From assembly GCA_000091205.1 (NCBI GenBank), contig AP006500.2: 64,000 nt of DNA; one strand, 5' to 3'. This document shows positions 1-62,879 of the stretch, in pieces. Position numbers and translations under genes: made by a program. The DNA comes from Cyanidioschyzon merolae (taxonomy: Eukaryota). The notes under the pieces are model-generated. The model had not been told where the DNA came from, ran no database searches, and worked only from the letters and a program-made list of their open reading frames with translations. Position 1 is the first letter of the stretch. Each line of letters starts with the position of its first letter.

Positions 1-44
1 TAGCGCGCTGTCGATAGCCGGGGCTGCTCGGGAGGTCTAGACGT

Positions 45-2251: not shown

Positions 2252-2737
2252 TTAGTTCCCGGTCGCGGCAGTGGCTGCCTGTGTAGCCGACTGACTAACT
2301 TGTTGCGCCTGCTTCTTCTGATAATCAGATACCGCTGCTCTGATAGCGTCTTCGGCCAGCATCGAGCAGTGAAGCTTCACCGGTGGCAGTTTCAGTTCCG
2401 ACGCGATCTGGCGGTTCGTTACCTTGACGGCATCTTCCAGTCGTTTTCCCTTGATAAGCTCCGTCGCGTAAGACGAACTTGCTATCGCGCTCCCACAGCC
2501 GAAAGTCTTGAAAACGGACTCTACAATGGTACCCGTTGTCGGGTCCACACGGATGGCAAGTTTCATGACGTCTCCGCAAGCGGGTGCACCAACGAGGCCG
2601 ACACCAACGTCCGGTGCGTTGCGGTCCAGACTCCCTACATTCTTCGGTTTCTCAAAGTGTTCTATAACCTTTTGGTCATACGAACGCGTAAGTCGCGGAC
2701 GAGCAAAACGTACTTGTTGAGCCAAACGCCAGAACAT
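2252..2737 (-). CDS. ISCU: Iron-sulfur cluster assembly scaffold protein IscU/Isu1 with an N-terminal presequence
   Basis: ATG at 2737. Translation contains YDQKVIEHFEKPKNVGSLD...GAPACGDVMKL...KTFGCGSAIASSS...LPPVKLHCSMLAED, which matches IscU signature motifs including the three conserved Cys and LPPVKLHCSML. The Arg-rich N-terminus is consistent with mitochondrial targeting. Confidence 0.85.
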   Translation of the reverse strand: MFWRLAQQVRFARPRLTRSYDQKVIEHFEKPKNVGSLDRNAPDVGVGLVGAPACGDVMKLAIRVDPTTGTIVESVFKTFGCGSAIASSSYATELIKGKRLEDAVKVTNRQIASELKLPPVKLHCSMLAEDAIRAAVSDYQKKQAQQVSQSATQAATAATGN

Positions 2738-3083
2738 GTCGTTGGTAACGCTTCACGTCCTCGTTATCGATTCCTCCAACACGGAGTCCAACTGGGTACC
2801 GTCTGTGATCTGCAGACGAGAGGTGCGCGTGTCACGGAAGCGCGTGGACGTCGCGTGCCTGACGCATGTCTGCAATGGTGTGCGTATTCTGTATATCATT
2901 GGATATAACGGACTCGAGTACCCACGGCCTGCTTGCGATCCTCGTACGTGAAGCATTCGCGCGCACGCGCTGGTCCGCTACAGCTGCTCCAGCACATGCT
3001 ATCCAACGTCCGGATACACTCGAGTTCGCAGACTTTCAGACTGCAGTGAAAACTTCGTAGACACGAAAGCGAATATTCAGGAA

Positions 3084-3650
3084 TTGTATTTCATGTTTGC
3101 ATATTACACACTAAACGGAAACGTATCCAAGGTGCACGCGAGAAGTCTGTGGTCGCGTGCACGCCGACGCCCTCGTCAGCCGTTTACGCGTTTGCAGGTC
3201 GGCGGGCACAGGCTCGAGTGCGCTGCACACGAGCCCCAGCAGGAAAGTATTGCTATCGTCCAGAGTACTTGGTCTCAAGCTGTGCAACAGCGCGAGCGTC
3301 TTGGACAAGTATTTTACGACCGCCTGTTCGCACTATATCCGGAACTACAGCCCATGTTCCGTTCGGATCCGGCACTTCAACGGATACGCCTCGTCGATAT
3401 GGTGGACGCTGGCGTTAAGCTACTGAATTCGCGGCGCGATTTGGAACAAGCGCTTCGTGATCTTGGGAAGCGCCACGTTAAGTACGGCACCCAGGAGGAG
3501 CAGTATCCCATCGTGGGCGAGAATTTGCTGCACGCCCTCGAGTCCATCCTCGGCAGCAAGCATTTTAGCGAAGATATGCGCAAAGCGTGGCTAGATGTCT
3601 ATGCATATTGGAGCTCGGTCATGTTGGAAGGTGCTCGCGAAGCTCAATGA
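3084..3650 (+). CDS. Single-domain globin (Vitreoscilla / flavohemoglobin-type globin domain). The exact start is uncertain.
   Basis: The C-terminal ~140 aa, IVQSTWSQ...FYDRLFALYPELQPMF...KRHVKYGT...YPIVGENLLHALESILG...AWLDVYAYWSSVML, aligns to bacterial-type SDgb/Vgb (YPIVGQELL, AWGKAYGVI). The only in-frame ATGs (3084, 3093) sit in an AT-rich patch ~50 codons upstream, so the real start may be non-canonical or spliced. Confidence 0.65.
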   Translation: MYFMFAYYTLNGNVSKVHARSLWSRARRRPRQPFTRLQVGGHRLECAAHEPQQESIAIVQSTWSQAVQQRERLGQVFYDRLFALYPELQPMFRSDPALQRIRLVDMVDAGVKLLNSRRDLEQALRDLGKRHVKYGTQEEQYPIVGENLLHALESILGSKHFSEDMRKAWLDVYAYWSSVMLEGAREAQ

Positions 3651-5609: not shown

Positions 5610-5900
5610 TTTAATTTGACGAAACGTTTCCATAGGCCAGCGTTCTTCGATTGTGCGCTTTTTCTTTTCTTATTTTTTTGTTGTTTTTTTCAGTGCGCGG
5701 TGAAGTATCCATCAAACCCGCTGCCTCCAAGTTACATGACCTGTACTTCTTCTCGGATATTCTAGTCGTTCCATACGTCCTATTGTGTGCCTAGTGCCTG
5801 CCGAAAGCGACAGCAATGGCGCCTATAGCGCCGGTGCAGTCGCTGCACGGAGACAGAACGGCATTGCCGTAGCACAGAGGGCGTCGGCTCGAGGATTTCT
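5610..5900. repeat. Dispersed ~290-bp repeat (family 4), copy 1
   Basis: ggccagcgttcttcgattgtgcgctttttcttttcttatttttttg...ccaagttacatgacctgtacttcttctcggatattctagtcgttccatacgtcctattgtgtgcctagtgcctgcc ... acagagggcgtcggctcgagg is matched at 62880..63160. Confidence 0.5.
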
Positions 5901-11073: not shown

Positions 11074-12764
11074 AATATGCTACCAATCTCTAGGAACGTT
11101 CTAAGGAACAAGACCAATAAAGTTTTTACTGTGACCATGCAATCCATCAGCCGGCAAGCCCATCACCCGGCCCCATGGGACACGTGAGCATAAGCCACAA
11201 ATCTGGCTGAACAGAGCCCAGACACGTTTCGCTTCCCCGCTCGATACGATTCTACAGGCCATCCAGACGCGATGCACCGGGAACCTGTGGCGCAGAGGCA
11301 CGCACAGAATGTCCGCATTGAGATCTCGGATCCTGTGACGGTGGTGGCGGGACGTGTCCGCGGCGCTTTCGGGTCCGTGTCCGTGTCCCGATTCATATCG
11401 AAGGGAAAAACAGCGCATCGCGTCGTGTCCCGGGCGTGCGGCGGACGCGACTCGTGAGTTTAGGGACAAAAATGGACATAAATAATCCGCGACCATAGGG
11501 TAAAAAATTTCTACCCACAGCTGGCCTCCAGGCTCTTTCGACTAGACCCCGGTATCGACTCAAGTTTCTCTCTCCACCCTCCAGCTTGCGAGGCTGTATC
11601 ACGAAATTAGATAGGAGGAGCCGCTCGGGTCTCGTACTGAGCACGGCACGTTGTCTGATAGTGATAGCGGCGTTGAAGTCTAGGTTCGCGAACTCCCTGC
11701 GTGGTTTGACGCTGGTCGAACCCACGTATACAAGGATTCCTCGAAGTGGTGCCCTTTGCGCCGCTACAGTCTCTTCATAGTCATGTCGCGCAAACTTTTT
11801 CCCGTCTATCTCACCTCTTCTACACCCGAGATCTGGGGGAGAAGAGGATTTATTGTTCTTTGTCGAACCCGGCGATGAAGGCCCTCTAGAATCCCCGAAT
11901 TCCATGTCCATGCAATCCTTTGGATTTTTCCTTCAACATAAACGAACCTCTATGCACTTAGGTGAGGACCTTCCCGGAGCGAGAAGGACTTGCAGTAGAA
12001 ACACGACATGTGCCTGGGTGTCTCCATGTGCTGAACGCCTGAGCGATTCACCCAGTGGAACGATCGTTACGTTTCACGATTGAAAATACTCGCTCGACGG
12101 AATTGAACCACTGGGAGCACGGAGGAAGGAGAAGCAGCCCTGCACCCCAATTGATTGGGAAAAAATCTCGAATGCAACGGGAATGGTGAAATACTAAGTT
12201 GTCTAACAGACCGACGTGTCCAAACGTCAGGGGAAAGTCTTCAATAGTTCGACAAAGTGATTGGTGCTGTTGTATGAGCCTTCTCTACGAACGAAATTGA
12301 GGCCGACAAATGAATCCGCTGCAGCTAGAATAGATGATAATGTAGTCGTTCTCTTCGAGTTCGATCATATATGCGATGAGCTCCCTCACCGCGAATATCC
12401 ATACATGCGCTGACCGTACCGTTCGAAAGAAGTCTCATCGGATCAAAAAACAAACCGACGTTTCAGTGCTTCTTACCGATCGAGACGTTCGGGGAACTCC
12501 GGGGTTGCGATTTCGATGGAAGATAACCGTGCGTGATGTAGGACTCGCTTCTAGCGACTGTATTCAAGTGTTCTCGGGGCCACACGAATAAGTTGTTGAG
12601 AGGCAGAGACGCCGGTGGCAGCCACTATCTTCGCTTTCGCCTTGCATAAGGTGATGAACAGGTCGCATTCTGCCATGGACCGCAAGCACGCTTTGAAAAC
12701 GTCAGTTTTGGGCGCGGAACGTATATACTTGTTTCTTTCTTTCATTATCCCTCAACAATCTGAG

Positions 12765-16676: not shown

Positions 16677-19120
16677 GATTAGCGTTCTCTGGTCTCAGGT
16701 TAACATTCGGGGCGCAGGCAGACTGTCGACAATTTACAAACGCTTCGAGACACCTCACCAGCGATCGCACAGAGCTCCTCTGTGCTCGATGCGGTGGCAG
16801 GTTTGAGCGTCTCGCATGTCTAGCGCGCATGCGAAGAACTGATGGCACGTGAGCGACGGCAGCAGCAGCAGCAGCATCCCTGATGATAAATTCCGAACAA
16901 GTCCGCGCGAATATCTGCACGAGTGGCAGAGAGGCTTTTCCTAGTCCGGCGATATCCTTAGCGGCTGCGATCATACGTTTTACTCTACGAGTCCTGTCGC
17001 GGTTCCTTTTGCAAAAGTCTCGTACACTTCGAGAAGCACGAGATGCCACTGCCTCGCGTCTGTGGCAGCAAACGCTGTGCAAAACGGCCGAGCCGCATGA
17101 TATGCTGCCAACCGAATCGCTCCGAGTTGTATATTGCGAGGATACGAGATCCAATGAAGTGGCTCTCGGAGTTTCCCGAGAACGACGCCGCAGCGACCGT
17201 GGCGCTGTGCACCTTTTTCTGAGTCACTGAGAAGGAGCGTTATGGCCTGGGCCTTGCAAGAAACACTCGCCCAAGCCAGCATGCTCCGAAGCGCCTGCGA
17301 GTCTTTGCGGTACTTTGGTAGGCATTCCGATCTGCAGAGCTGATCTCACGGCTTTCTGCGACCTCGATTGAGGATACCGCTGGCGGGATGCGCCATCCGA
17401 ACGACCCTGGGCCAAAAGCGAGCGTGCAGTTTTCAGAAGAAACTTCTAGGTCTCTAGTACGAAAATCCTCCCACGGAATGGACGAGCTCTATTAAGAGAC
17501 GCTGCAGCGAGCAAGCAGCAACGCCAGTGGGAGTCGCAGTTCCTGTAGGTACGAGACATACGCCTCAACACGCTCTCGGCTTGCAAGCGAGTTCTGTAAA
17601 CGGTACAGGAATGACATTGACATGGCCTCCGCAATCTGTATTCAATCTACTGGGAAGAGGCGCTCATGCTGGATATCTTTTCGCAATATCTCGGGTATGT
17701 AGGCGAATAGCATCATCTTTGCCAGTTGCGCGATAAATAATAACGCTTGCTTATGGGGTTTATGATCAATTTGCTGGGAAGACTCGTCGATGCGTTACTC
17801 ACAAGCCGATGGACGTGCGGACAACATGTTCGAATCATCGATCGTATACCCTGCAAAAGTAATATGTACCGTCTCCCGTGCTCATGGATGTAGGAAAATT
17901 AGTTTTGATATTCCGACACCGTCGCATGAAAAGCAGAATGATCCCCAATTGCGCAGCTGCAACTTTTTGTTCGACAGAAGGTTTACCTGGACCAGCTATC
18001 CCAGAATGGAGGATGGGTACTGGAAATCTAAAATGCGTTCATCATACTGCACCCTACCTTCGAGCTCTATTACCCATGCTTCCTCTTGGATGTACTGGTC
18101 TTTTTGTACTTTCTATCGTGCATCGATTGTCTGCTGTGAGCATCCGCAATAGCACCTATGCAATTGGTACGGATGTGACACAGAGACAGAGTGGCTTTGC
18201 TATACCACTGACAGCATCAGCTCGAGGAGTGCTGCGCTCGACACGGTGTCAAAGTACATAATCATTCTGGGAGCCCGCAGGCTGCGCAGACAGACCTGCT
18301 GTCTGCGGCAGCGCGAAGCGGTATTCTGGGAGATAACTGCAACAAGGGCGACGCATAGACACATTCTACCCGCTCCGAGTGACAGAATAAACTGCGTTGC
18401 GGACGAGTTGCGCAGATCTCACTATAGTGCCCGCCACTGGGAGGAGCATGAAGCGTATGCGGGGCAGATTCGTCCCGCTCGCGGGACCTTTCGCCAAGAA
18501 GGTAAACATTTGACGATATGGAGAGCTTTCCCCTTTTAATGTTTATCGTAGAGGGGGAATGGATTTTTTATATCGTTGGTAGTTCATGGTTAGTCTCTGT
18601 TCTTTTTTCTGTATGGAGCAGTCGATACAATCACCTCTATATCTGGCAGGCACGAGACAGGATGGGCATCTCGCCGTTGAAGCGAAACGCGTTCCTGAAG
18701 AGTATCATGTTGATCTAACAAGATGTATTTGCATTGAAGACGGAGCAATCTATAGTTCAGTCTAATTATGTTCCAACTTTCAAGTGAGTACATTCAAGTG
18801 ATTCTTCGCACTATGTAACGGAGGCGTTCGAAGAGCGTCCTTTTTCAAAAAAGACACTAAAACAGGAAAGTTATGGGAAAGCGAGTCGACGAGCCCTGAG
18901 GCCCAGTGTCGCCGGCTGCCTGAAAAAACAAAAAACAGTGCCGAGTCAAGAAGAAAAGGAAAAGAAAAAGAAGCGAAATGGAGAGGCCCTACGTCGAAGG
19001 CTGCAATAAAGACGACAGTGCGACGAAATCGTAGTAAAACCCTGTCTTCGTAGACATATCAAGGGTCCGCACAAGGAAAAGTCGCAAGACGCCATCAGAA
19101 TCCATATCGCGTCTTACTCC

Positions 19121-19786
19121 ATGAGTATTATAAAGGCGCCGTTAGGACTAATGCATTTGGAGAAGGATACGTGTCGCAACGTGACGGACATCAAAACAAT
19201 TGACGTTCTGGAAGAATTTTTCAACAAGACCTTCACCCGCCACCTGATGCTTGGCACCGGGGAAACGTCGAGTGGAAATGAGCGAGCGCATGCCCTCCAC
19301 GAAAATCACGCCGAATACCGCATCAGCGGTACTCGATCCAGGGGCGACTTGTGTATTGACACCTGCGGGGCAGTCAGGTACTTCACGAACCTAAAGATCC
19401 ATTTGACCGTGAAACTCGAATGCTTCACGATACGCGTCCTGTTTGCGCTGTACTCGGGCCTCTCGCGCACAGGAATATGGGTCATTATCGATGGCATCAC
19501 GAATGATCGCCAGCACGAACAGGAGACTGAGCTCGTCGAAGAGAAGATATCACACAGGAGAACGAATGAGGCTTCTGTCATCCGTGCGGCTATGCAAGAG
19601 CATCGTGCGGACTTGGTGCTCGCGCATCCAGCAGAAAAGGTATCAGATATGAAAAAAGATGAAGAAAGATGCTGTTCCCGAGCCCTGCGCTATTTTACGC
19701 TTTTGGGCCGGGATCTGGAACGCATGGCCGAAAAGCAGCTGAGTCGCGGAAAAATGAAGATTCGGAGGAATGGAAGGCTTTCCTAA
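19121..19786 (+). CDS. Conserved ORF1 of the duplicated module (221 aa, unknown function). It could be the N-terminal WED/REC-like part of the type-1 Fanzor-like gene.
   Basis: ATG-initiated ORF that is intact in both copies (37034..37699) with ~5 aa differences. No motif recognised. It lies immediately upstream of the RuvC-bearing frames and in the same orientation. Confidence 0.4.
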   Translation: MSIIKAPLGLMHLEKDTCRNVTDIKTIDVLEEFFNKTFTRHLMLGTGETSSGNERAHALHENHAEYRISGTRSRGDLCIDTCGAVRYFTNLKIHLTVKLECFTIRVLFALYSGLSRTGIWVIIDGITNDRQHEQETELVEEKISHRRTNEASVIRAAMQEHRADLVLAHPAEKVSDMKKDEERCCSRALRYFTLLGRDLERMAEKQLSRGKMKIRRNGRLS

Positions 19787-21200
19787 TGGGTACGCGCCTC
19801 AACGTCGTTCCGATATGCAGCGCCAACTCATATTTCGTGGCAGTCTGCTCCAGCGTCCCTCATGGCATCGTGAGGGATATCTGTCCGGAGTTCGATGCAG
19901 GCAAGAAGGAGTTCATGGGCCAAAACCGGGAAACTCATTGGAAGAATATCTTCGATTTCAAACGTCTCAATACGGGCAAGAAAGGGTATTCACGGGGACC
20001 ATCGGAAGCGATGGGGCAGCCATGTGTGTACATTACCGGCGGCTGGGGGCGGATCGTCCTATCGTGCCTTCGGCTTCGCCCTCGCCGAAGCATGAAGAAA
20101 AGAAGGAGGCAGATCCTGCGACTCAGGAGGTGCAGGATAACGAGCTTGTCGCTGGCTCGGCGAAGCATGAAGAAAACAACAAGGCGGATCCTGCGACACA
20201 GGAGGTGCAGGATAACGAGCTTGTCGCTGGCTCGGCGAAGCATGAAGAAAACAACAAGGCGGATCCTGCGACACAGGAGGTGCAGGATAACGAGCTTGTC
20301 GCTGGCTCGGCGAAGCATGAAGAAAACAACAAGGCAGATCCTGCGACTCAGAAAGTGCAGGATAACGAGCTTGTCGTTGGCACCGACCCGGGGAACACAA
20401 ATATCGTTACCATCGCTGCACCCAAGCGTGCGGAAGATGGTCCTGACGTTAGCTCACGTCAGAAAGACATGCTTCTTTTAAAGTTCTAAACATAGAAATA
20501 CCATCGAGAATCGGGAATACTGAATACGAGGAAGAAAATCGAGACGTGGAATGCCGCAGTGCAAGAGCATCTGGAAGCTTTGAGCGAGCTGACGAGCCGA
20601 GGAGCGGACTTTCAGGCTTCTCGGAAATCCATGAAAGTTCGTGTTGCTCATTGGGAGGCGCTGTGGGATGAGTATCCAAAGCCCCGGTGGGCTCGTCAGC
20701 GACTGATCTTGTGCTGTGGGAAACAGGGAGCGTTCGCCAACTTTTTCAATGCGTTCGGCGCCCTCAAAGAGGACGAGAGTCAGAGGCTCGCAATAGCGTA
20801 TGGAGCAGGGCGCTGGATGACCCAAAAAGGGTGTACACAGCTCCATCGACAAGAGCGTACAAGAAGTGTGCACATCGTTTTGTCACAATACCTATCGATG
20901 AGTTCCTAACGTCCTATATGCACCATGAGCTGGGGTGCACACTTCCGAGCGTCGAGACGGAAAAGCGTCAGCGGGGCCCTGAGGATATAGCAAAGTACGG
21001 AGCGCTGACAGAGCAGCAAGTAGAAAGTAGGGCGAAAGTTCCTGGGCTACGTGCACTGGTGCGTACAACCAGTGATGGCAAGAAACGTATAGCGTTTGTC
21101 AATCGTGACTCGAACGCCGCTATCAATACCAGGAGATGTACGGTGATGGAGACGAGACCCCCGGAGTTGATACGATCCAACTTTACGCGGCAGCCTCTCA
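19770..21200 (+). pseudogene. Type-1 TnpB/Fanzor-like RNA-guided-nuclease-family gene (OrfB_IS605 / OMEGA superfamily). It is frame-disrupted and probably a pseudogene.
   Basis: RuvC-I-like NELVVGTDPGNTNIVTIA at 20367-20414 (compare the TnpB GIDLG..n.ATLS motif). The frame then breaks (stop at 20489). Further downstream are ...AIAYGAGRW / VYTAPSTRAYKKCAHRF....MHHELGC (a YTSQ.C..C-like zinc-finger region, 20830-20950) and RuvC-III NRDSNAAIN at 21101-21127 (compare dRDvNAAiNI). These motifs lie in at least three frames. Confidence 0.55.
20082..20381 (+). repeat. 75-bp in-frame tandem repeat, 4 units, encoding AKHEENNKADPATQEVQDNELVAGS
   Basis: Units start at 20082, 20157, 20232 and 20307. The last unit runs into the RuvC-I motif, so the repeat duplicates the approach to GTDPG. 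Copy B (37995..38219) has only 3 units. Confidence 0.9.
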
Positions 21201-21364
21201 AGGTGAACTTACCCAGGGACAAGTTGGAACCAGTAGTAGGTGGCCGGTCCAAAAAGACCGGGAGGCGTCTGCACGTCAGCGTACCGACATCCACACTATC
21301 GGCGTCGTGTATATGCGTCGGTATACCTGTTTGGTCTGTGGTAGCTGAGAAGCATGGCCCGTGG

Positions 21365-21964
21365 ATGCCTTTTTCGAGTCGTTTCTTTCGGCAGCTGGTT
21401 CGCGGTGTCAGCTATGTGCCGGTCGTGTACGTTGTCCACGATCTTGTCGGTACGATTGTTCCCGTGAGGGGTGCGTCTATGCAACCAACCCTGAACCCAG
21501 GTGCGGCTGCAGGGGAGCTACCTCCCGGACAAGTTAGCGGCAGTCAGGATGTCGTGTTGGTTAGCCGGCTTCTCCGCGCTGTTTGGAACGTAAGGCGTGG
21601 GGATATCGTCGTTTTGCGGTCTCCCGACGCGGGACCGCAGAAGCGACTCGTGAAAAGGGTGGCCGCTCTAGAGGGGGATCGCGTTTACAACCACCGCACT
21701 GGGAAGTTTGTGGAGGTTCCACCTGGCCACTGCTGGCTCGTAGGTGACAACCGTACGGTGTCCCGTGACTCGGCTAGCCACTACGGGCCGGTTCCGCTGG
21801 GACTCCTCGAAGGACGCGCAGTGGCGGTTATCTGGCCACCACGTCGCTGGCAGGTGCTCGCGACGTCACCAAGCACAGGTTTGTGGCTCGACACTCGGAA
21901 CAGCGAGGGAGACCAACTGCCAGCCAAGAAGCAAGTGCTGGCCAAGTCGGCAACTACGAAGTGA
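21365..21964 (+). CDS. IMP1: Mitochondrial inner membrane protease subunit, an IMP1/IMP2-type S26 signal peptidase
   Basis: ATG at 21365. Motifs: VRGASMQPTL (GxSMxPTL nucleophile Ser), RGDIVVLRSP, KRVAALEGD, GHCWLVGDNRTVSRDSASHYGPVPLGL (GDN...S.DSR.YG box D/E). The protein is about 199 aa. Confidence 0.8.
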   Translation: MPFSSRFFRQLVRGVSYVPVVYVVHDLVGTIVPVRGASMQPTLNPGAAAGELPPGQVSGSQDVVLVSRLLRAVWNVRRGDIVVLRSPDAGPQKRLVKRVAALEGDRVYNHRTGKFVEVPPGHCWLVGDNRTVSRDSASHYGPVPLGLLEGRAVAVIWPPRRWQVLATSPSTGLWLDTRNSEGDQLPAKKQVLAKSATTK

Positions 21965-22199
21965 ATGGCTGTACGTCCGGATGGTGAGCAGAGAACGGCG
22001 CTATGGAGCAGCACCCATTTCAGAATACCATACAACGGATCCGCTCAGCGAACTCGGGCGTAGACGCTCAAGTCTGGACCGCTTCGCATTGTCATCTACA
22101 AGAGGTTTTGTGGGCGTTTTCTTCGAGTACGTCCTTTTCCTCGCTCTTGTCTCCGGTATTGTATACGTCGAACGATGCATGTTGTCTTGTTGGGTTGCC

Positions 22200-23813
22200 A
22201 GTAACCGAGGCATGTCGACGGCAGCGGTAGAGTCGCGGTATCGCCTCTTCGGGCAGTTGTGGACGCGTTTCATGCCCAGGCAAAAGTTGCCATCGATGGG
22301 TCCTCTGTATGTGTATGCAACGTCGGTGCTGCGTTTGCAGCGGTGACAAACTTGGGTGTGTTCCGGCGTTCCCATGCGTCCCCAACGTACGTTCTCCCTC
22401 TCGGAAGGGCGCTTTGTGGTACCTGTACGCCAGCTCCATCACCCACCATATGGTATCGACGGGTGCAGAGGGCTTGCCCCGAGATCGTCCTCCGTTTCGG
22501 CGCCTGGTGCCGTAAACTGCGATGACGGGCTCGTTCTGGTCGATCGCCTCGGCGAGCACCAGACGCGCTGCAAACACAAGTGCAAACGCCTCCTCTCGAT
22601 GACTCAACATGCGCTGGCTTGCGCGCTCTTCGCTCCCTGAGTACGCTTTTGGCGAAACATGGCGATGATCGTGACGAGCATCGCGTTGCCGTACCTACTC
22701 GTGGGCATTGTGTGTCCACGTGCTTCACTTGTGTGCGAGCGTGCAGTCACGGCTTCTGGGACTCGCTGCTGCTTCCGTCGCTTGCTTGCTGGACGGACGT
22801 TTTTCGCGTTCATTATCTTCCGCTGATACGAAGAGTACAGGCGCGCTGGCAGAATGCACGGCTGCTGGTCCAAGTCAAGTATGCGGGCACAAAACCCGAG
22901 CAGCCATAGCTTCGCCTGTTGCCACCAGGGGTATTGGGTCTCTGTTTGGGTAAAAGAGGAGCGCAGGTGCAGGGGTCCGCACTGCATGCTCCAGGCTGGT
23001 GCAGAGTGCATTGGAGAGCATCCTCGCGAGGCGATGCATTTGTACGGGTCGTTGCTCGTCTGCGTAGTAGCTCGTCTGTGCTGTATAGGTCGTTGCTTGT
23101 CTGCGTAGTAGCTCGTCTGGGCTGTACGGGTCGTTGCTTGTCTGCGTAGTTGCTCGTCTGGGCTGCACGGGTCGTTGCTCGTCTGCGTAGTAGCTCGTCT
23201 GGGCTGTACGGGTCGTTGCTGGTCTGCGCAGTAGCTCGTCTGGGCTGTACGGGTCGTTGCTGGTCTGCGCAGTAGCTCGTCTGGGCTGTATAGGTCATTG
23301 CTCCTCTTCGTAGTAGCTCGTCTGGGCTGTACGGGTCGTTGCTCGTCTGCATAGTAGCTCGTCTGGGCAGGGGTGCTTTTCAGCTCTGACGGTGTCATGA
23401 ATCGTATGGGAGGTTCGCTGTTGTCCTTGTTGATAATGGCGATATTGGCCGATACGCTTACGCAGTCGGTCTCGACGAAAGACGCAACCTCTCCTGGTCG
23501 TATTGCGAAGCTGGTATTCCCGCAGTTTTTCCTTCCCGCTTGCATCTATTGCTTGCGAGGCATGGTGTCGCCACTGCCGAGCGGTGTTTCCTCGATGACC
23601 GTGAAGAAAAGCGGATTCGACTTGAGCACCGAATCGATTATTTGACGTGACAAATCCAGTCGACTTTCGGAACGGGCCTGCGAACAAGGCATCAAGGGGT
23701 GACGTCGAGGCTGTCTGCTCGTCAACCCAACAGAGCGCATTGCTGCGTCCACGAGTTGCCCTGAATCGGAAAGATCGAAAACTTGAAGCATGTGAGATTC
23801 GGGTATGCCACAC
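22200..23813 (-). pseudogene. Type-2 TnpB/Fanzor-like gene relic, convergent with the type-1 gene. It carries frameshifts and a 41-bp repeat insertion.
   Basis: Minus-strand frames give RuvC-I-like ARILDLDQQP (~22875), RuvC-II-like LVLAEAIDQNEPVIAVYG (~22553), zinc finger TPEHTQVCHRC...FCLGMKRVHNC (22348-22260) and RuvC-III-like YRDSTAAVDM (22237-22211). These lie in three different frames. The tail is clearly homologous to copy X (29850-30083): TCRHCEW...FRLCMKRVDNRCKWLIRDFNAAAEVV. Confidence 0.45.
23035..23375. repeat. 41-bp tandem repeat (~8 units) inside the type-2 relic
   Basis: Unit gggtcgttgctcgtctgcgtagtagctcgtctgggctgtac. A 41-bp period is not a multiple of 3, so the minus-strand ORF shows a 41-aa periodicity (QRPVQPRRATTQTSNDPYSPDELLRRRATTRAAQTSNYADK). 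Copy B has fewer units (about 40860-41100). Confidence 0.85.
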
Positions 23814-25213
23814 ATAAGGAGAGAAGAAGCGAAGCAGCTTGCAAATATGAGTTGGATATCGATTTCTGTTTTTTTACGGACCCGTGTTCGGGGGTATCGC
23901 GAATCATTCTGACTCCGATGAAGGAACGCATTCCAGCGGTAAATCGTTCAAGGTAACGCTCCGAAAACACGACCAAGAATCCTAAAACTACGCGTGAACC
24001 CGTATGCCCATAGTGCTGCACTTGGAATCTTGATGCCGCAGATCCAGAGAAAAACGTTTGGATGTATCGCAAGCTAGGAAGAGCGCAAGCAGCTCAAAAC
24101 TCCATGATAACGTAATACGGTTCTAGAGACCTGCTCTGGGGCCGCGCTCCCATCCGCAGAGGCAGCGCACGAAAGCAACAGCACTAGCCAAAAAAATGAG
24201 CTCGAACGGGTTCACATATCGGCATACATTGCATTACCGATTTCGCATGGCGTGGAACTGGGGAGAGAGCATCCCAATATGGAAACGTACTCAGCCGGGC
24301 ACGCGTCTGCATCCGCAGCATATGCGCAGGTCCCGTGAAAGGACCACCTGCGGCGCCGTGCGGCCCGCGCTGCACCAGGCCAGCTTCTCTGACAGCCTAA
24401 ACAGCGCCAATGCTCCCGTGACCTGGACTACGCTCAAGGTCTAGCTCCGCAGCAAACGACGTACCTGCTGTCGCTCGCCGCCCTGAACTAAACGCACGCA
24501 CGCGTACGCGTCCTCGAGTTGGGCGCTTCACGAAAGCGACCCGAGCAGCCGCAGGCTGCAAAACGTGCTCCCTTGTTGCCTAGCGCTTTCTCACGAGAAT
24601 AACCTCGAACCGGTACGCCTTCGAAGCAAAGAAAAGCGCCTGCGAGCTCGACCTCGTATGCAGCCTATAAACGAGGCTCCTGGGGTGCTCGTTATCGAGC
24701 TTCAGTGCACGCATCGATACAGCCCCCGCCACGTTTCCCACCGAACAAAGCACCGTGATCTCTGTTGCATCGTCATGCACCAGTCACGTATCAACCTCTG
24801 CGAAAAGCAAGCTCGATGCATACAACCAACAACAACCGTACGCATCAGCAAGCAAGCATCGAAGCAGATGGCAACAAACAGTGCCCTTGGCGCGTGCTGC
24901 TGCCTCCTTCGGGAGATTGTTTTCGGACAACGCAGCAGCGATCGCGCGCGCGCGCCTCGAAGGCCATCAGCTGCAATTCGACGCTGCCTCGAAAGTGTGC
25001 GTTCGATCCGCACTACGGCGGCGCGAGCTGTCACGACTCCGGTGACCCCCAGCGAACAGTTCGCATCGAGATAGAAGTCGAAGTTTGCAACGTGGCAGTG
25101 CCAGCTTGCGCTATAGCATGGCCCCGGAGGAGGCGCCAGTCCAATGCTTCCAAAGCAATTTGTGTTTGGACTTGTTCTAGCTCGAACAACATCTGTAATC
25201 CGATTGTATCTCA

Positions 25214-27091
25214 TTGAAAGCCATGAACATGAGGCTGCTCTATCTGGCCGCTATTGTAGTGGTCCTGGCGGCGACGCTGCTGCAAAGTGCGGCCGCCATG
25301 GACTACTATCAGAAGGATATGAAACAGAAGAAGCAGTGCTACACAGTCGAGAAGTGTGTGAAGCAGGAGCGCAAATGTATCCAATATGAGAAGGTTTGCA
25401 CGCAGCCGCAGAAGAAGTGCATCCAGCACGAACTTATCTGTGTGCAGCAAGAGAACCAGTGCAAGCAGTACGAGCCCGAATACCAGAATGTTAAAGTCTG
25501 TGTTGCGTACGAGAAAGAATGCGTGCAATGGAACTATAAGGATGAGTGCCAGCAGGAGTACGTCCAACAGAACAATTACTTCTGGGGCATGAGATGGTCC
25601 AATGAGAAGAAGAAGGAGCCTGTCAAGAAACAGTGCAAGAAAGTTCAGAACGGCTGCGCACAGTGGCAGGAGAACAAGAACAAGTGCGCACAGTATGGCG
25701 AACAACAACAGAAGATCGGACAAAAGTGCTCCGACTATGTCCAGGTGTGCACGAAGACGAAACCCGGGAAATGCATCCAGTATCAGGAGACCTGCAACAA
25801 CTATCAGCAGCAGTGTGCACAATGGGCTAACGTGTGCCAGCAGTACAAGAAGGAGATCGTCTGTCCTGAACCCAAGAAGGAGCCGCAGAAGAAAGTTAAG
25901 CAAGAGCAGTACGTGAAGAAGGACAACTACGTGTGGCGAATGTACGATCAAAAGAAAAAGTATGATCAGAAAAACGTAGAGCAGCAACAGAAGAATGAAT
26001 GGTTCCAGCAGCAGAATGAGAAGAAGCAGTACTATTGGCAGCCACAGAAGACCCAGTACTACAAGAAGAATGATTACAAGAAGAATGTTTACAACGACCA
26101 GAAACAGTACTACTGGGAGCCACAGAAGACCCAGTACTACAAGAAGAATGATTACAAGAAGAATGTTTACAACGACCAGAAACAGTACTACTGGGAGCCG
26201 CAGAAGACCCAGTACTACAAGAAGAATGACTACAAGAAGAATGTTTACAACGATCAGAAGCAGTACTACTGGGAGCCGCAGAAGACCCAGTACTACAAGA
26301 AGAATGACTACTACCAAAAGAAGGACAACTACGTGTGGCGAATGTACGATCAAAAGAAAAAGTATGATCAGAAAAACGTAGAGCAGCAACAGAAGAATGA
26401 ATGGTTCCAGCAGCAGAATGAGAAGAAGCAGTACTATTGGCAGCCACAGAAGACCCAGTACTACAAGAAGAATGATTACAAGCAGAATGTTTACAACGAC
26501 CAGAAACAGTACTACTGGGAGCCGCAGAAGACCCAGTACTACAAGAAGAATGACTACAAGAAGAATGTTTACAACGACCAGAAACAGTACTACTGGGAGC
26601 CGCAGAAGACCCAGTACTACAAGAAGAATGACTACAAGAAGAATGTTTACAACGATCAGAAGCAGTACTACTGGGAGCCGCAGAAGACCCAGTACTACAA
26701 GAAGAATGACTACTACCAAAAGAAGGACAACTACGTGTGGCGAATGTACGATCAAAAGAAAAAGTATGATCAGAAAAACGTAGAGCAGCAACAGAAGAAT
26801 GAATGGTTCCAGCAGCAGAATGAGAAGAAGCAGTACTATTGGCAGCCACAGAAGACCCAGTACTACAAGAAGAATGACTACAAGAAGAACGTTTACAACG
26901 ACCAGAAACAGTACTACTGGGAGCCGCAGAAGACCCAGTACTACAAGAAAAATGACTACAAGAAGAATGTTTACAACGACCAGAAACAGTACTACTGGGA
27001 GCCGCAGAAGACCCAGTACTACAAGAAGAATTACAATCTATACGGAAAGAAAGAAAATCCATACGTTCCGCAGTATTACTACTGGGAGTGA
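25214..27091 (+). CDS. Secreted cysteine-module Gln/Lys/Tyr-rich repeat protein, paralog C (625 aa)
   Basis: ATG at 25214 with signal peptide MKAMNMRLLYLAAIVVVLAATLLQSAAA. An N-terminal Cys module is followed by WNYKDECQQ, MRW and CKKVQNGCAQWQENKNKC...GKCIQYQETCNNYQQQCAQWANVCQQYKKEIVC. After that come 2.9 copies of a 134-aa repeat rich in K/Q/Y/N/W. Confidence 0.75.
   Translation: MKAMNMRLLYLAAIVVVLAATLLQSAAAMDYYQKDMKQKKQCYTVEKCVKQERKCIQYEKVCTQPQKKCIQHELICVQQENQCKQYEPEYQNVKVCVAYEKECVQWNYKDECQQEYVQQNNYFWGMRWSNEKKKEPVKKQCKKVQNGCAQWQENKNKCAQYGEQQQKIGQKCSDYVQVCTKTKPGKCIQYQETCNNYQQQCAQWANVCQQYKKEIVCPEPKKEPQKKVKQEQYVKKDNYVWRMYDQKKKYDQKNVEQQQKNEWFQQQNEKKQYYWQPQKTQYYKKNDYKKNVYNDQKQYYWEPQKTQYYKKNDYKKNVYNDQKQYYWEPQKTQYYKKNDYKKNVYNDQKQYYWEPQKTQYYKKNDYYQKKDNYVWRMYDQKKKYDQKNVEQQQKNEWFQQQNEKKQYYWQPQKTQYYKKNDYKQNVYNDQKQYYWEPQKTQYYKKNDYKKNVYNDQKQYYWEPQKTQYYKKNDYKKNVYNDQKQYYWEPQKTQYYKKNDYYQKKDNYVWRMYDQKKKYDQKNVEQQQKNEWFQQQNEKKQYYWQPQKTQYYKKNDYKKNVYNDQKQYYWEPQKTQYYKKNDYKKNVYNDQKQYYWEPQKTQYYKKNYNLYGKKENPYVPQYYYWE
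25916..27088 (+). repeat. 402-bp coding tandem repeat (2.9 copies), each unit containing four 78-bp subrepeats
   Basis: Units start at 25916, 26318 and 26720. The subrepeat encodes KQYYWEPQKTQYYKKNDYKKNVYNDQ (26 aa). Confidence 0.9.
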
Positions 27092-27479
27092 AAATCAGCA
27101 GGGAGCCACCGAACATCTGGGAGCGTCTGAAACGGTGGGGGCACGGGAAAGTTTACGGATTGGCGATTGCGCCGCTACGTACAGGTTAGACTCTTGCCAG
27201 TAAACCGATAGAGTACACCAGAATGCAGTTTGCGCTTATGGCGGGTACCTCGATCGTGTCAGGTGAGTTGCAAGGCATAGGCGCCGTGGTCTATATCGAC
27301 ACAGCATGCATGCTGTGTCTCTGCGAAGATCACCGGATCCGGCGGACGTTGCGGGCACCATAACTTAAACCACGACGGCAACATGTTACCGATATGAACT
27401 GTCATCGGTGCCAGCCCGTGACCCCCCAATAGCAGCCGCATTCAAAACAGTTCCTCATTGCAGCGACCGTGCCGCACGC

Positions 27480-28010
27480 ATTACAAGCACCGTCAGTGAT
27501 CGTATATGCCTGCTCACGAACCCGTCGATGACTAGATTTTTTTCTACTTTCCATATACCTAACGAAACTCCTGCTCACTAGTGTGAGGCATACCTCATCG
27601 GCCCACGCGTGCGACGCCGCGAACGCTCCCCGTGTGCTACAAACATCGCGGGGTTTTGCGCCTGCCCTGTACACACGCCGGGTACGGTCGGAATGGTGCA
27701 CAGCAGAGGGCAGCAGCGTCGCGGCCAGCGCCGGCGCGTAACGCGGGAGATCATTCGACGTGAGCTCCGCAACCCCCCGATACCTGATCCCCTGCCGCAC
27801 GCTGCAATGCACATCGGCTCGTCAGCGCGCGGCAGGGCACGCTTGCGTCAACGCGGCGTCGGACACGTGTCCTTCATCGATCGGCGGCGGTCTGCGACGT
27901 GTACGCACCGCGGTCGATACGCGCGCAAACAGATTTTGCAGGCATGGGACACGACGCCGACGCCGTCGTCGAAGGGAAACGCGTTCCTGACCATTCGTCG
28001 ACTTTGCCGG
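27480..28010. repeat. Dispersed ~500-bp element (family 3) immediately upstream of paralog D
   Basis: Shares cctaacgaaactcct..., cggcgtcggacacgtgtcc... and gcaggcatgggacacgacgcc...gaagggaaacgcgttcctga with 36165..36640. A ~70-bp fragment of the same element lies at 18640..18710, just left of module copy A. Confidence 0.5.
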
Positions 28011-28203: not shown

Positions 28204-29133
28204 ATGATCAAGAAAACTGTTTTGTGTTTTGCAGTAGCGCTGGTGCTTTGCATCGTAGCACCGATGAAGGGTGCGCAGGCCTGGTACAACACCGTAGCAC
28301 AGCAGGAGCAGTGCTATCAGAAGCAGGTGTGCACTCAGTATGACAACCAGTGCACAGGATATAGCAACGTATGTTTGCAGTGGGGCGAGCAGTGCAAGCA
28401 ATACGAGCAGGTGTGCACAAGCTGGGAAACCAAGTGCCTTGCCTATGAGGATGTTTACAAGACCACTCAGGTCTGCGCCCAGTACGCCCAGACGTGCGCA
28501 CAGTGGAACTACAAGGAGGACTGCCAACAGGTCAAGCAGGAGCAGAAGCAATACTATACTGCCGTGGAGACGCCAGTTGCAAAACAGGACTACAAGAAGA
28601 AGCAAGACTATGTCAAGAAGCAGGAGGATCAGCAGAAGAAGGACCAGTACATCTGGGGCCAAAACGGCTGGCGCTGGTACAACCAGGAGCAGCAGCAGAA
28701 GCAGCAGGTTCAGGTGAAGAAGGTCATCGAGACTCCGATCGCCACCCAGACCTGCAAGAAGGTGCAAGCTGGATGTGCTCGCTGGCAGCAGGACACCTCC
28801 AAGTGCGAGCAGTGGACTACAAACAAACAGAAGATCGGCGTTCGGTGCGCAAACAGCGCTCAGGTATGCTCCAACTACACACAGGGCAAGTGCGCTCAGA
28901 GCGAGCAGGTCTGCCTGAGTTATGGCCAGAAATGCACGGGCTACCAGCAAGTGTGCAAGTCGTACGGCTGGCAATGGGTCTGCCAGCAGGTTCAGGCCAC
29001 TGAACAGTACCAGCAGAAGCAGGTTTACGGCCAGAAGGAAGTATACGGCCAGCAACAGAAGCAAAAGTACCAGAAGGACCAAAAGCAGTACCAGGATCAG
29101 CAGAACTACTGGCAGAAGCAGTACATGTGGTGA
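28204..29133 (+). CDS. Secreted cysteine-module Gln/Lys/Tyr-rich protein, paralog D
   Basis: ATG at 28204 with signal peptide MIKKTVLCFAVALVLCIVAPMKGAQA. Modules: CYQKQVCTQYDNQCTGYSNVCLQWGEQCKQYEQVCTSWETKC, WNYKEDCQQ, WRW and CKKVQAGCARWQQDTSKC...GKCAQSEQVCLSYGQKCTGYQQVCKSYGWQWVC. The tail is Q/Y/K-rich and ends QYMW. Confidence 0.75.
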   Translation: MIKKTVLCFAVALVLCIVAPMKGAQAWYNTVAQQEQCYQKQVCTQYDNQCTGYSNVCLQWGEQCKQYEQVCTSWETKCLAYEDVYKTTQVCAQYAQTCAQWNYKEDCQQVKQEQKQYYTAVETPVAKQDYKKKQDYVKKQEDQQKKDQYIWGQNGWRWYNQEQQQKQQVQVKKVIETPIATQTCKKVQAGCARWQQDTSKCEQWTTNKQKIGVRCANSAQVCSNYTQGKCAQSEQVCLSYGQKCTGYQQVCKSYGWQWVCQQVQATEQYQQKQVYGQKEVYGQQQKQKYQKDQKQYQDQQNYWQKQYMW

Positions 29134-31608: not shown

Positions 31609-33309
31609 CTAGTCGAGCGCAACCTTTGCCAAGGACGCACGTGTCTGCGTCTTGGCTCGGGACCCGATCAGGACGCGCCTCAAAGCGTCTCGATGCGAAC
31701 TCAGTACCGCCCAAATCCAGAGCATCGACATGAGAAGCGTCCAGAGGCTCAACGAACCCGAAGGGATCCATGTCCTGGCACCGACCAGCGTCCGAGATAC
31801 CAGGAGATGGGCGGTGCTCGCCCATATGGTCGTAGCGAGCAGCACCTTGCCACTGGGCCATGGCGCACACGATGCTCGTGTCGTATCCCGGCCATCGGCG
31901 TGATGCAGGGCGATTCGGACCATAGCGGTGGCGAGTGCAGCTCGCACTAGTAAGGTGATAGCATTGTTTGCAATCAAAAGCAGCGGATCTCCAGTGTGGA
32001 TGGCAGCCCAGCGCACGCCGGCGACAAAGCCGATGGAAACCACGGCATTGCACACGGTATGCGTTAGGAGCATACCCGATGAGAGTAGCGGTAAAACTGC
32101 TGTAGTGAGCAATGCGTCTGTCGTTCCAAACAGTGCTGCGGCAACGAGTGAGCGTAGATGCCAGGCCAGGAGCCTCGCGACCGGCGCTCCATGAATCGCT
32201 GCTGTTCGCAGCCATCGTTTTCCGTAGACAATCTCCAAAAACAGCGGAACGTAGACAGGGCCGACCACCGAAAGTAGAATCGCCAGGAGAATCGCACAAA
32301 GCCGTGCGTCTTGCGCGAAACGATATGCCTCGACGAGCTGAGCTGGATCATTCTCGCTGGCGGTGCGGGCTGCCAGGACGCAGACGCTCTCCTCCAGCGG
32401 AAAAAAGAAGAGCCGCAGCACCATCGACGCCAAATTTCCAGTTATCTTATAAGCTCCAATCTGCTCTGCTGTGAGGCGCGTGGAGAAAGCCAAAAACACG
32501 TTCTCTGCATCGGACGCCAAAAACTTGAGCGCAGCATGGAACGACGCATGTAGCCATAGCCGTCGGCTGTCCGTATCCCGCCTCTGATCCGCTTGGCGTC
32601 GTCTCTTTCGCGACCCGAGACGCCTCTGAAAACTTAGCCAGGAATGCGCCAGCACAACTACCCGGACGAAACTCTGTGCAAACCACCCCAATGCAGCGCC
32701 CAGTGCATCATCGCCAGTCACATAGGCAATCGATACCGCAGATAGATGCTGCGCAAGCGCCGCAAGGCCGTCCGCTCGTGCACGCCCTGCGAGTGCCCCA
32801 GCGTCGCCGTGCAACAAACACTGTACATGGAGCCATTCGCCTATGGATGCCTCTAACAGGGCTCCGGCTCCGACGAATGCGTACGCCATGTCCACGGGTC
32901 CGGAGCTGATTTTCGCTGAAGCTCTCTTCCGAAACGCAGCATCATTGCCAACAAAGACGATGACACACCAGAAGATATTCATCCAAAACCAGAAGCGTCG
33001 TTGAGCGAACTCGGGGCGCTGCAACACGACGCGCCGTACTACCTCCCGGGCAGGCCAGAGTGCAACTGCGACCGACAAGCCCAGGTACACGTCCGAGAAC
33101 GCTATCGCAGCTGGCCCAAACCGGCGCGCTAAAAGCGTACGCAGTGCAAAGCTGATCACTTTGCTCAACAGGGACCAGAGGATCGTGGACCTCACGTTCG
33201 CGCTAGCCGTCTCTATGGCGACCTGGGAACCGCTCATCCGGTCAGCGCTCGCGTGCCGTCTCGAGCGCTGCAACGGCTTCGGCTCTCCAGTCGTTCCCGC
33301 TTTTTCCAT
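31609..33309 (-). CDS. RFT1: Multi-pass membrane protein resembling RFT1 (the Man5GlcNAc2-PP-Dol flippase family protein)
   Basis: ATG at 33309. Translation is 566 aa with at least 10 predicted hydrophobic helices. The N-terminal segment STILWSLLSKVISFALRTLLARRFGPAAIAFSDVYLGLSV resembles the Rft1 N-terminus (LL.R.LTF.LNQ...R.....FG.A.I.FEL). The assignment is by resemblance only. Confidence 0.55.
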   Translation of the reverse strand: MEKAGTTGEPKPLQRSRRHASADRMSGSQVAIETASANVRSTILWSLLSKVISFALRTLLARRFGPAAIAFSDVYLGLSVAVALWPAREVVRRVVLQRPEFAQRRFWFWMNIFWCVIVFVGNDAAFRKRASAKISSGPVDMAYAFVGAGALLEASIGEWLHVQCLLHGDAGALAGRARADGLAALAQHLSAVSIAYVTGDDALGAALGWFAQSFVRVVVLAHSWLSFQRRLGSRKRRRQADQRRDTDSRRLWLHASFHAALKFLASDAENVFLAFSTRLTAEQIGAYKITGNLASMVLRLFFFPLEESVCVLAARTASENDPAQLVEAYRFAQDARLCAILLAILLSVVGPVYVPLFLEIVYGKRWLRTAAIHGAPVARLLAWHLRSLVAAALFGTTDALLTTAVLPLLSSGMLLTHTVCNAVVSIGFVAGVRWAAIHTGDPLLLIANNAITLLVRAALATAMVRIALHHADGRDTTRASCAPWPSGKVLLATTIWASTAHLLVSRTLVGARTWIPSGSLSLWTLLMSMLWIWAVLSSHRDALRRVLIGSRAKTQTRASLAKVALD

Positions 33310-35833: not shown

Positions 35834-36164
35834 TTTTTCGACGTCTCAGACAGGCGAACGACGGCGCGTAGCTCCAGGCGTTGCCCGGGAACCTTTACGG
35901 ACGAGGTCGTTTACGACGCTCAAAAGGTCCAAAGATCACAATCCGAAAAAAACATCGGAACTTGGTCTGAAAGAAATCTGAATAGAGCGCTGACGCTCTA
36001 TCCGACTTTTGATTAACAATAGCAACAACAACCGACCTCACGACATTGTCAAAGTCGAAACTGTCGAGCAACGGAACGCACGAAAACCGCACAACTCATC
36101 ACAGTACCTCATTCCGGCGTCTGTGCAGCATTCATAACAAGCATAGGGGATCAACGTATATTCG

Positions 36165-36640
36165 TACTCGATACACTACTATGCCTAGTTTGTTTACCAT
36201 CAGTAAACCTAACGAAACTCCTACTGAGTAGAGAGATGCATACCTCACCCGCACAAGCGTAACACCCTACGATGGCTACGCTTTCGACAGAAGCATCGCG
36301 AGGTATCTTGCCAGGCCCCAACATCCCCATGTATGTCAGGGCGGTACTGCGATAGGCTGTAGTCTCGGCACCAGGGAAATATCCTATCGCAGGGGATTAT
36401 TCCGTGTGAGTTTCCGATTTACGATACCTGATTTCCGCTGCAGAGCGATGCGTGCTGGTGAGAACACGCATGCGCCAATGCGGCATCGGACACGTGTCTC
36501 CTTTATGGATCGGTGTGAGCACTGCGGTCGGGCAGCGCTTCACGGGACCTGGCAGGCATGAGATACGACGCGCATGCCGCCGCCGTTGAAGAGAAACTTG
36601 ATCTTGATTTCCAGCGTATAGCCGAAATGTAAGAGTTGTA
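36165..36640. repeat. Family-3 dispersed element, second full copy, immediately left of module copy B
   Basis: See 27480..28010. Same orientation. Confidence 0.5.
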
Positions 36641-37033
36641 TTTTCGTTAACTTCATAGCCAAGCACAGTTTTTCAGTTCATTTGTGTTTCACACCTCAAC
36701 TAAAAAATTCGATTGATATTTCGCAGTATATAACGGAGGCTTTCGAATAGCGTGCTTTTTCGAAAAAGACGCTAAAAAAGGAAAGTTATGGGAAAGCGAG
36801 TCGACGAGCCTTGAGGCCCAGTGTCGCCGGCTGCCTGAAAAACAAAAAACAGTGCCGAGTCAAGAAGAAAAGAAAAGAAAAAGAAGCAAAAGGGAGAGGC
36901 CCTACGTCGAAGGCTGCAATAAAGACGACAGTGCGACGAAATCGTAGTAAAACCCTGTCTTCGTAGACATATCAAGGGTCCGCACAAGGAAAAGTCGCAA
37001 GACGCCATCAGAATCCATATCGCGTCTTACTCC

Positions 37034-37699
37034 ATGAGTATTATAAAGGCGTCGTTAGGACTAATGCATTTGGAGAAGGATACGTGTCGCAACGTGACGG
37101 ACATCAAAACAATTGACGTTCTGGAAGAATTTTTCAACAAGACCTTCACCCGCCACCTGATGCTTGGCACCGGGGAAACGTCGAGTGGAAGTGAGCGAGC
37201 GCATGCCCTCCACGAAAATCACGCCGAATACCGCTTCAGCGGTACTCGATACAGGGGCGACTTGTGTATTGACACCTGCGGGGCGGTCAGGTACTTCACG
37301 AACCTGAAGATCCATTTGACCGTGAAACTCGAATGCTTCACGATACGCGTCCTGTTTGCGCTGTACTCGGGCCTCTCGCGCACAGGAATATGGGTCATTA
37401 TCGATGGCATCACGAATGATCGCCAGCACGAACAGGAGACTGAGCTCGTCGAAGAGAAGATATCACACAGGAGAACGAATGAGGCTTCTGTCATCCGTGC
37501 GGCTATGCAAGAGCATCGTGCGGACTTGGTGCTCGCGCATCCAGCAGAAAAGGTATCAGATATGAAAAAAGATGAAGAAAGATGCTGTTCCCGAGCCCTG
37601 CGCTATTTTATGTTTTTGGGCCGGGATCTGGAACGCATGGCCGAAAAGCAGCTGAGTCGCGGAAAAATGAAGATTCGGAGAAATGGAAGGCTTTCCTAA
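37034..37699 (+). CDS. ORF1 copy B (221 aa, unknown function)
   Basis: Intact paralog of 19121..19786. Confidence 0.4.
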   Translation: MSIIKASLGLMHLEKDTCRNVTDIKTIDVLEEFFNKTFTRHLMLGTGETSSGSERAHALHENHAEYRFSGTRYRGDLCIDTCGAVRYFTNLKIHLTVKLECFTIRVLFALYSGLSRTGIWVIIDGITNDRQHEQETELVEEKISHRRTNEASVIRAAMQEHRADLVLAHPAEKVSDMKKDEERCCSRALRYFMFLGRDLERMAEKQLSRGKMKIRRNGRLS

Positions 37700-39038: not shown

Positions 39039-39202
39039 AGGTGGACTTACCCAGGGACAAGTTGGAACCAGTAGTAGGTGGCCGGTCCAAAAAGACCGGG
39101 AGGCGTCTGCACGTCAGCGTACCGACATCCACACTATCGGCGTCGTGTATATGCGTCGGTATACCTGTTTTGTCTGTGGTAGCTGAGAAGCATGGCCCGT
39201 GG

Positions 39203-39802: not shown

Positions 39803-40037
39803 ATGGCTGAACGTCCGGATGGTGAGCAGAGAACGGCGCTATGGAGCAGCACCCATTTCAGAATACCATACAACGGATCCGCTCAGCGAACTCGGGCGTA
39901 GACGCTCAAGTCTGGACCGCTTCGCATTGTCATCTACAAGAGGTTTTGTGGGCGTTTTCTTCGAGTACGTCCTTTTCCTCGCTCTTGTCTCCGGTATTGT
40001 ATACGTCGAACGATGCATGTTTTCTTGTTGGGTTGCC

Positions 40038-62620: not shown

Positions 62621-62879
62621 GTCGCAGCTCACGTTTCTGAGAAACCGGTACAACCTTTGAGGCGACGGGAAACTATTCTCGAGTCCAAAGTGCGAACAGA
62701 GGTCGTCGACTCGCCGAACAGATCGTGTTGCAGAAAAAGGTCACCGTGCGCCGAGAACAAACGCCTTTCAAAAGAGAAACGTTGTCGTCGCCAGCGGTGT
62801 AATGGCGGCGAACAGCGTCCTAGACAAAACGTCTCCATCTGACGTGCAGACGCCTCCCAGTTTTTTTCCATTGACAAAG

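Follow-up and report, generated by a model that had tools for sequence, protein, structure and literature searches.

The question raised by this locus is what kind of gene lies broken in a window of 64,000 nucleotides from the alga Cyanidioschyzon merolae (contig AP006500.2 of assembly GCA_000091205.1; the window is the whole stretch of DNA that was analysed), where motifs of a RuvC nuclease are scattered over different reading frames. An earlier note, made from the sequence alone, had placed a decaying nuclease gene of the TnpB/Fanzor family in a eukaryotic nuclear locus at 19770-21200, and DNA, profile, structure and chromosome evidence now agree with that call. Open reading frames (ORFs) of the window exactly match protein entries of C. 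merolae 10D assigned to chromosome 18, which places the locus in a eukaryotic nucleus. The stretch 17972-21279 (+) is almost certainly an old, inactivated copy, here named copy A, of CMe-1A, a Fanzor1-encoding transposable element family of this alga. The span first proposed does fall on the gene but is too narrow, as the element occupies 17972-21279 and its coding remnant 18873-21279.

CMe-1A was described as the one Fanzor1 family of C. merolae, with about 150 genomic copies that are each around 80% identical to a consensus of 3169 bp (Bao and Jurka, 2013, Mob DNA 4:12, PMC3627910). The element lacks terminal inverted repeats, its 5' 635 bp equal the element TE-N2_CMe, and its protein, CMe-1, has 734 amino acids encoded by a single exon (PMC3627910, Additional file 1). 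When the published consensus (Additional file 2 of PMC3627910) was compared with the window by blastn and global alignment, its positions 1-3091 of 3169 aligned to 17972-21279 (+) with 82.6% identity, a value that fits the published per-copy figure. Residues 1-729 of the CMe-1 protein were recovered by tblastn in five frame segments with 55-76% amino acid identity. Because both the consensus and the protein align, the remnant is a copy of the published element, and the identification is not new, as the family, its consensus and its protein sequence were already published in 2013 (PMC3627910). The parts of copy A are as follows.

17972-21279, + strand: copy A of CMe-1A, consensus positions 1-3091, 3' end short by 78 bp
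17972-18600, + strand: 5' non-coding module resembling TE-N2_CMe, consensus positions 1 to about 635 (alignment to consensus)
18873-21279, + strand: Fanzor1 (CMe-1) pseudogene, codons 1-729 of 734, in frames 0, 2, 1, 0 and 2 (tblastn and codon-aware alignment)

Three-frame translation of 19100-21400 places the catalytic motifs on the plus strand and in the correct order, in two frames and with stops between them.

20370-20417, + strand: RuvC-I motif LVVGTDPGNTNIVTIA, frame 0
about 20828-20938, + strand: RVYTAPSTRAYKKCAHRF...IDEFLTSYMHHELGC, frame 2
20882-20938, + strand: VTIPIDEFLTSYMHHELGC, in which the RuvC glutamate of DE[FY]xTS precedes a zinc-finger position that is degenerate, with HH..C in place of CxxC
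21098-21127, + strand: RuvC-III motif VNRDSNAAIN, frame 2

The catalytic aspartate of RuvC-I is contained in GTDPG at 20379-20393, and the family motif aligns there with VIDPNKRD of SpuFz1 and MDPGRRD of PpFz1. In the family profile alignment the VTIPIDEFLTSYMHHELGC region stands opposite LLDEYKTSSVCPRC of SpuFz1, and the catalytic glutamate is kept together with the following [TS][TS] (IDEFLTS at 20894-20914, aligned to LDEYKTS of SpuFz1), a combination that was defined as a Fanzor1 signature by Bao and Jurka (PMC3627910). The metal-binding active-site residues of SpuFz1 are D383, N385, E541 and D606 (Saito et al., PMC10432273); by motif, the SpuFz1 strings IDPN, DEY and NRD fit these residues, and the window keeps the equivalent D, E and D. 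The RuvC-I, zinc-finger-region and RuvC-III peptides on which the earlier note had relied are thus present in the order it gave, broken by stops and frameshifts. Such a set lies far beyond chance: searched with a hidden Markov model (HMM) of the family, the pieces of the six-frame translation matched at E = 7e-41, 8e-38 and 6e-27 and spanned positions 29-612 of the 622 in the profile.

That the family belongs to Fanzor1 was tested independently of the 2013 paper, by profile and by structure, using as comparison structures PDB 8gkh and 9ceu-9cf3 (Saito et al., 2023, PMC10432273; PMC11423790). A family profile built from 40 intact relatives matches solved Fanzor1 chains, namely PpFz1 (9cf0, 1.3e-16), SpuFz1 (8gkh, 4.5e-11) and, far more weakly, GtFz1 (0.079), and the motifs DPG, DE[FY]xTS and NRD align between this profile and the Fanzor1 structures. 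A narrower profile of 13 sequences gave no PDB match, Fanzor1 being reached only with the 40-sequence profile. The core reading of the earlier note is thus supported, as the profile of intact relatives reaches PpFz1 and SpuFz1 and the six-frame pieces match the family HMM. For P0118, an intact relative, an AlphaFold2 model was obtained with a predicted local distance difference test score (pLDDT) of 87 and a predicted template modelling score (pTM) of 0.82. The seven best Foldseek matches of this model are all to SpuFz1, PpFz1 and GtFz1 (E 2e-17 to 3e-15, template modelling (TM) scores up to 0.65/0.71), with SpuFz1 at E 1.9e-17 and TM 0.65/0.71; these are followed by Cas12f (E 1.5e-4), other Cas12 proteins and Fanzor2 (1.9e-3). 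The modelled structure of P0118 thus has the WED-REC-RuvC fold, and the family, as judged by profile match and predicted fold, is Fanzor1.

Several observations weigh against this reading of the locus. Neither OrfB_IS605 nor OrfB_Zn_ribbon was matched by the four ORF pieces of the window or by six relatives in Pfam, and NCBIfam was also blank; in this Pfam check, which the earlier note had suggested, the only match was to the Peptidase_S26 domain of the part that belongs to the neighbouring gene IMP2. Only a distant relative, P0238, carries PF07282. Because direct TnpB matches to the Pfam OrfB families are missing, the link to TnpB is drawn through the Fanzor1 profile and structure matches. 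The canonical C4 zinc finger is also absent between the TS motif and RD, where no CxxC pairs occur. Of the zinc-finger region announced in the earlier note, RVYTAPSTRAYKKCAHRF...HHELGC is present, whereas the C4 finger itself is missing: HH..C stands at its first position, and the second has no cysteine pair (YMHHELGC...ALVRT in the window, YTHHELGC...ALVST in the CMe-1 consensus). Finally, a regulatory role of the remnant as the upstream region of IMP2 is possible, and is taken up below with that gene.

At the zinc-finger position, distant intact relatives carry two His and two Cys at the site of the Fanzor1 C4 zinc finger (THHEFGC...LLWC, P0118 residues 577-623), and in the C. merolae lineage the final Cys of that site is gone (LLALV). 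The His/Cys arrangement may represent a non-canonical or degenerating metal site.

Relatives of the family are numerous. The repaired translation finds more than 150 of them at 50-70% identity, either unnamed or labelled PF26935 / DUF8286; starting from the intact 676-amino acid relative P0118, another group of proteins of 600-700 amino acids is reached; and an exhaustive profile search yields 1860 cluster representatives at E<=0.001. The domain-of-unknown-function label, which is all that these relatives bear, is what could be expected if the motifs came from a conserved family of host proteins that has nothing to do with transposons, the scenario that the earlier note itself had named as its refutation. 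This explanation is extremely improbable, being contradicted by the multi-copy state (two long copies plus six or more fragments in the window, and about 150 copies in the genome according to Bao and Jurka, PMC3627910), by 471 confirmed matches in metagenome contigs whose flanks differ, by a sharp right end common to the copies, and by best matches that are Fanzor1 structures.

The Fanzor1 gene of copy A is inactivated by several lesions. Codon-aware alignment of the coding remnant 18873-21279 with the consensus reveals four stop codons and four frameshifts.

18897-18899, + strand: premature stop TGA, codon 9
19007-19009, + strand: premature stop TAA, codon 46
20487-20489, + strand: premature stop TAA, codon 465
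20493-20495, + strand: premature stop TAG, codon 467
18922-20836, + strand: the four frameshifts against the consensus (-1 at 18922, net -1 at 19745-19749, -1 at 19980 and -1 at 20836)
19121-19786, + strand: open stretch of 221 codons, 'ORF1' of the earlier note, CMe-1 residues about 84-294, in the REC/WED N-terminal half

It could be argued that the gene is intact and that sequencing errors or introns only mimic frameshifts and stops in it, considering that GTDPG, IDEF and NRD can still be read and that ORF1 is open in both copies of the duplicated module (copy B is described below). ORF1 was correctly seen as open in both modules and rightly suggested to be a REC/WED part (family HMM positions 29-264 match the 19121-19786 region, E 7e-41), but it is a segment of the same Fanzor1 protein and not a separate gene. 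The lesions are not assembly errors, because most of them recur in copy B and in L001, an independent metagenome contig that is 98% identical to copy B: copy B shares all four stops and the frameshifts at 19745-19749, 19980 and 20836, differing at the 5' indel near 18922, and exact matches of 26-28 nt identify all four stops, as well as the frameshifts at 19980 and 20836, in L001. In L001, two of the three frameshift sites checked were confirmed in this way, and the site at 19745 gave no exact match. Nor are the frameshifts introns, because the indels are just 1-2 bp long, far too short, and the published gene is itself a single exon (listed as '734 (1)'). In addition, the substitutions between copies A and B fall on codon positions 1, 2 and 3 in the ratio 13/12/15, that is, without codon-position bias, and therefore point to neutral drift since the duplication. 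An intact gene at this locus is thus scarcely credible, and for the dead copy of CMe-1A with its four stops, four frameshifts and lost terminal 78 bp no activity is expected.

A further difference from the consensus is an expanded minisatellite within the coding remnant.

20081-20381, + strand: 75-bp tandem repeat of four in-frame units, each of 25 amino acids, running into the start of the RuvC-I strand (Tandem Repeats Finder)

Consensus positions 2120-2196 match each of these units, which number one in the consensus, four in copy A and three in copy B (37994-38219). The copy number of this minisatellite varies across the family, and some metagenome relatives (P0001, P0002) exceed the unit number of the consensus.

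The 3' end of the element bears on whether copy A could still specify a guide RNA. In characterised Fanzors, the omega-RNA derives from the element end and the 3' flank provides the guide (PMC10432273), and an omega-RNA-like structured region had been expected at 21100-21360. No such region emerged there: the window 21040-21360 folds no better than shuffled sequences (z -0.59), Rfam at E<=1 reports nothing in 17500-24500, and the terminal 78 bp of the element are gone. Homology of copy A stops at consensus position 3091, which corresponds to window position 21279, and the last 78 bp (3092-3169) are replaced by sequence reaching up to IMP2. The family right end was examined with 80 loci that contain relatives, taken from metagenome contigs, of which 33 non-identical copies were used. 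In contrast to copy A, these 33 continue to consensus position 3169 and then diverge, and since conservation, at roughly 0.9 up to there, drops sharply to roughly 0.45 two bases past that position, the right end of the family is fixed at 3169. The stretch missing in copy A includes, in other copies, a conserved terminal hairpin, which is formed by the last 24-27 nt in 23/24 unique copies (mean z -2.5) and in which compensatory exchanges separate subfamilies at two pairs (U-A versus G-C, and G-C versus U-A). With RNAalifold, the last 310 nt of the 33 copies yielded a weak common fold (-12.4 kcal/mol), to which covariation contributed next to nothing. The right end and its hairpin refer to the 3' ends of loci L008-L087 and to 62762-62839 (-) of the window. 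The hairpin could be the guide-adjacent part of an omega-RNA, or it could serve transposition as a DNA structure.

By analogy with better known systems, the life of an intact copy can be outlined. Its single-exon gene of about 734 codons would encode a Fanzor1 protein with WED, REC and RuvC domains, and this protein, as in SpuFz1, GtFz1 and bacterial TnpB, would bind an omega-RNA transcribed from the 3' end of the element. The guide of this RNA would consist of flanking sequence, and the complex would be predicted from its family to cut matching DNA beside a target-adjacent motif (TAM). Copy A was inactivated and then copied passively, together with the adjacent IMP2, in a segmental duplication of 5.4 kb. 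Intact CMe-1 members abound in the Cyanidioschyzon of hot acid springs. It may tentatively be proposed, although this is less likely than not, that they are still active RNA-guided nucleases despite having no canonical zinc finger, that the covarying hairpin is the guide-proximal stem of an undescribed omega-RNA, and that copy A is a fossil of this system.

Immediately downstream of the truncated element lies a host gene.

21365-21964, + strand: IMP2, mitochondrial inner-membrane peptidase Imp2p-like, BAM82534.1, 199 amino acids (Pfam Peptidase_S26, 1.7e-18; exact look-up, 21365-21961)

The start codon of IMP2 is found 85 bp past the end of copy A, on the same strand and in the same frame, and no stop codon intervenes. 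The 425-amino acid ORF at 20687-21964 is therefore a spurious chimera, whose C-terminal half is the Peptidase_S26 domain; the RefSeq IMP2 protein has 199 amino acids. The dead Fanzor1 C-terminus reads in frame into IMP2 in both duplicates (20687-21964 and 38384-39802), the second IMP2 being annotated as BAM82540.1. Gene callers on related metagenome contigs produce a 433-amino acid 'inner membrane protease subunit 2', as in P0113 and numerous cluster members, a false fusion product that arises because the dead Fanzor1 C-terminus joins IMP2 in frame without a stop.

This arrangement leads to the suggestion mentioned above, in which the remnant would have been co-opted as promoter or 5' leader of IMP2 and, for that reason, kept and duplicated with it. 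The short distance, shared strand and open frame between element and start codon would suit such a role, as would the duplication of remnant and IMP2 as a single block and the fusion of both into one 433-amino acid product by gene callers on wild relatives. Against it, the remnants of copies A and B differ by substitutions at the frequency that neutral sequence would show, and physical linkage alone accounts for the co-duplication. Co-option is thus considered unlikely, and copy A is taken as a dead CMe-1A element carried along with its neighbour.

Copy A and IMP2 are both part of the segmental duplication.

18792-24184, no strand assigned: segmental duplication of 5.4 kb, with its partner at 36707-41915 and 97-98% identity (self-megablast)
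36524-39117, + strand: copy B of the dead element, consensus positions 649-3091, with one extra stop at 38562

Within the duplicated block are the dead Fanzor1 gene and IMP2, followed by some 2.2 kb of downstream sequence. Identity of 96-98% between the two modules is confined to the part right of about 18813; upstream of this point they are only about 60% alike, even though both match the CMe-1A consensus (18500-18900 versus 36410-36815). Copy B has a different 5' module, shared with a fragment near 27450-27995: its stretch 36101-36513 resembles 27447-27884, and the latter leads into another small family fragment. Because the modules diverge upstream of about 18813 and yet both match the consensus, the pattern suggests that two distinct CMe-1A elements exchanged sequence by recombination or gene conversion, with a breakpoint inside the transposon. 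Recombination of two different CMe-1 elements with each other may have produced the duplication that gave rise to the second IMP2, since the left breakpoint of the duplication lies in the element. At its right edge, a repeat that could account for it was looked for and not found.

Besides copies A and B, fragments of the family lie elsewhere in the window, as follows.

11558-11848, - strand: C-terminal Fanzor1 fragment (tblastn, HMM and consensus alignment)
5721-5895, 27909-27995 and 62981-63166: family fragments
56867-57033, 57343-57960 and 62762-62867, - strand: family fragments

A second, divergent copy had been proposed at 22200-23813. It does not exist: tblastn with three family proteins found nothing there, hmmsearch --max at E<=10 on both strands gave no match, and hhalign of the 313-amino acid ORF against the family profile returned a probability of 0.4%; the real extra fragments are those listed above. 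The stretch holds ORFs that are unassigned; the one in question (313 codons, 22604-23545, minus strand) belongs to no detectable family, and a 41-bp tandem repeat of eight units with 90% match lies inside it at 23041-23368.

Other features of the window lie farther from the element.

50196-52397, - strand: CMR337C (exact look-up)
31612-33309, - strand: Rft1-like protein BAM82537 (exact look-up)
28204-29130, + strand: CMR328C (exact look-up)

Large tandem repeats occupy 25916-27031, with blocks offset by 402 bp, a sub-periodicity of 78 bp and 96-99% identity, and sit inside overlapping long ORFs at 25214-27091 (+) and 25211-26791 (-). By self-comparison, a near-perfect direct repeat of 278 bp (99.6% identity, offset 148 bp) is found at 54136-54560.

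The value of copy A as a discovery is small, because it is dead and the catalogue of Fanzor1 elements in C. merolae dates from 2013. Even so, the check shows that a motif-based call made from sequence alone was correct, and it corrects an annotation trap, in which a remnant in frame with IMP2 leads automatic callers to a false 'IMP2' of 425-433 amino acids. The exact boundaries of the element and its lesions can now be used for masking, and the right-end hairpin of the family could aid the reconstitution of a Fanzor from a thermo-acidophilic alga.

Compared with known systems, the family shares the RuvC nuclease core with bacterial TnpB (IS200/IS605, IS607; OMEGA) and with Cas12f. It differs from TnpB in the absence of a direct Pfam OrfB match and in a much larger N-terminal REC region; no TnpA partner was noticed, although no search was aimed at TnpA. 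From the Fanzor1 proteins SpuFz1, PpFz1 and GtFz1 the CMe-1 family is set apart by a sequence identity of only about 12-15% and by lacking the CxxC...CxxC zinc finger, whereas it resembles them in domain order, in the DPG, DE[FY]xTS and NRD motifs and in the predicted fold of an intact relative. Copy A departs from the CMe-1A consensus by its four stops and four frameshifts, three extra 75-bp units, the loss of the last 78 bp and its position within a 5.4-kb segmental duplication. In turn, it agrees with the CMe-1A of Bao and Jurka (2013) in genome, in family and in the TE-N2_CMe-like module at its 5' end.

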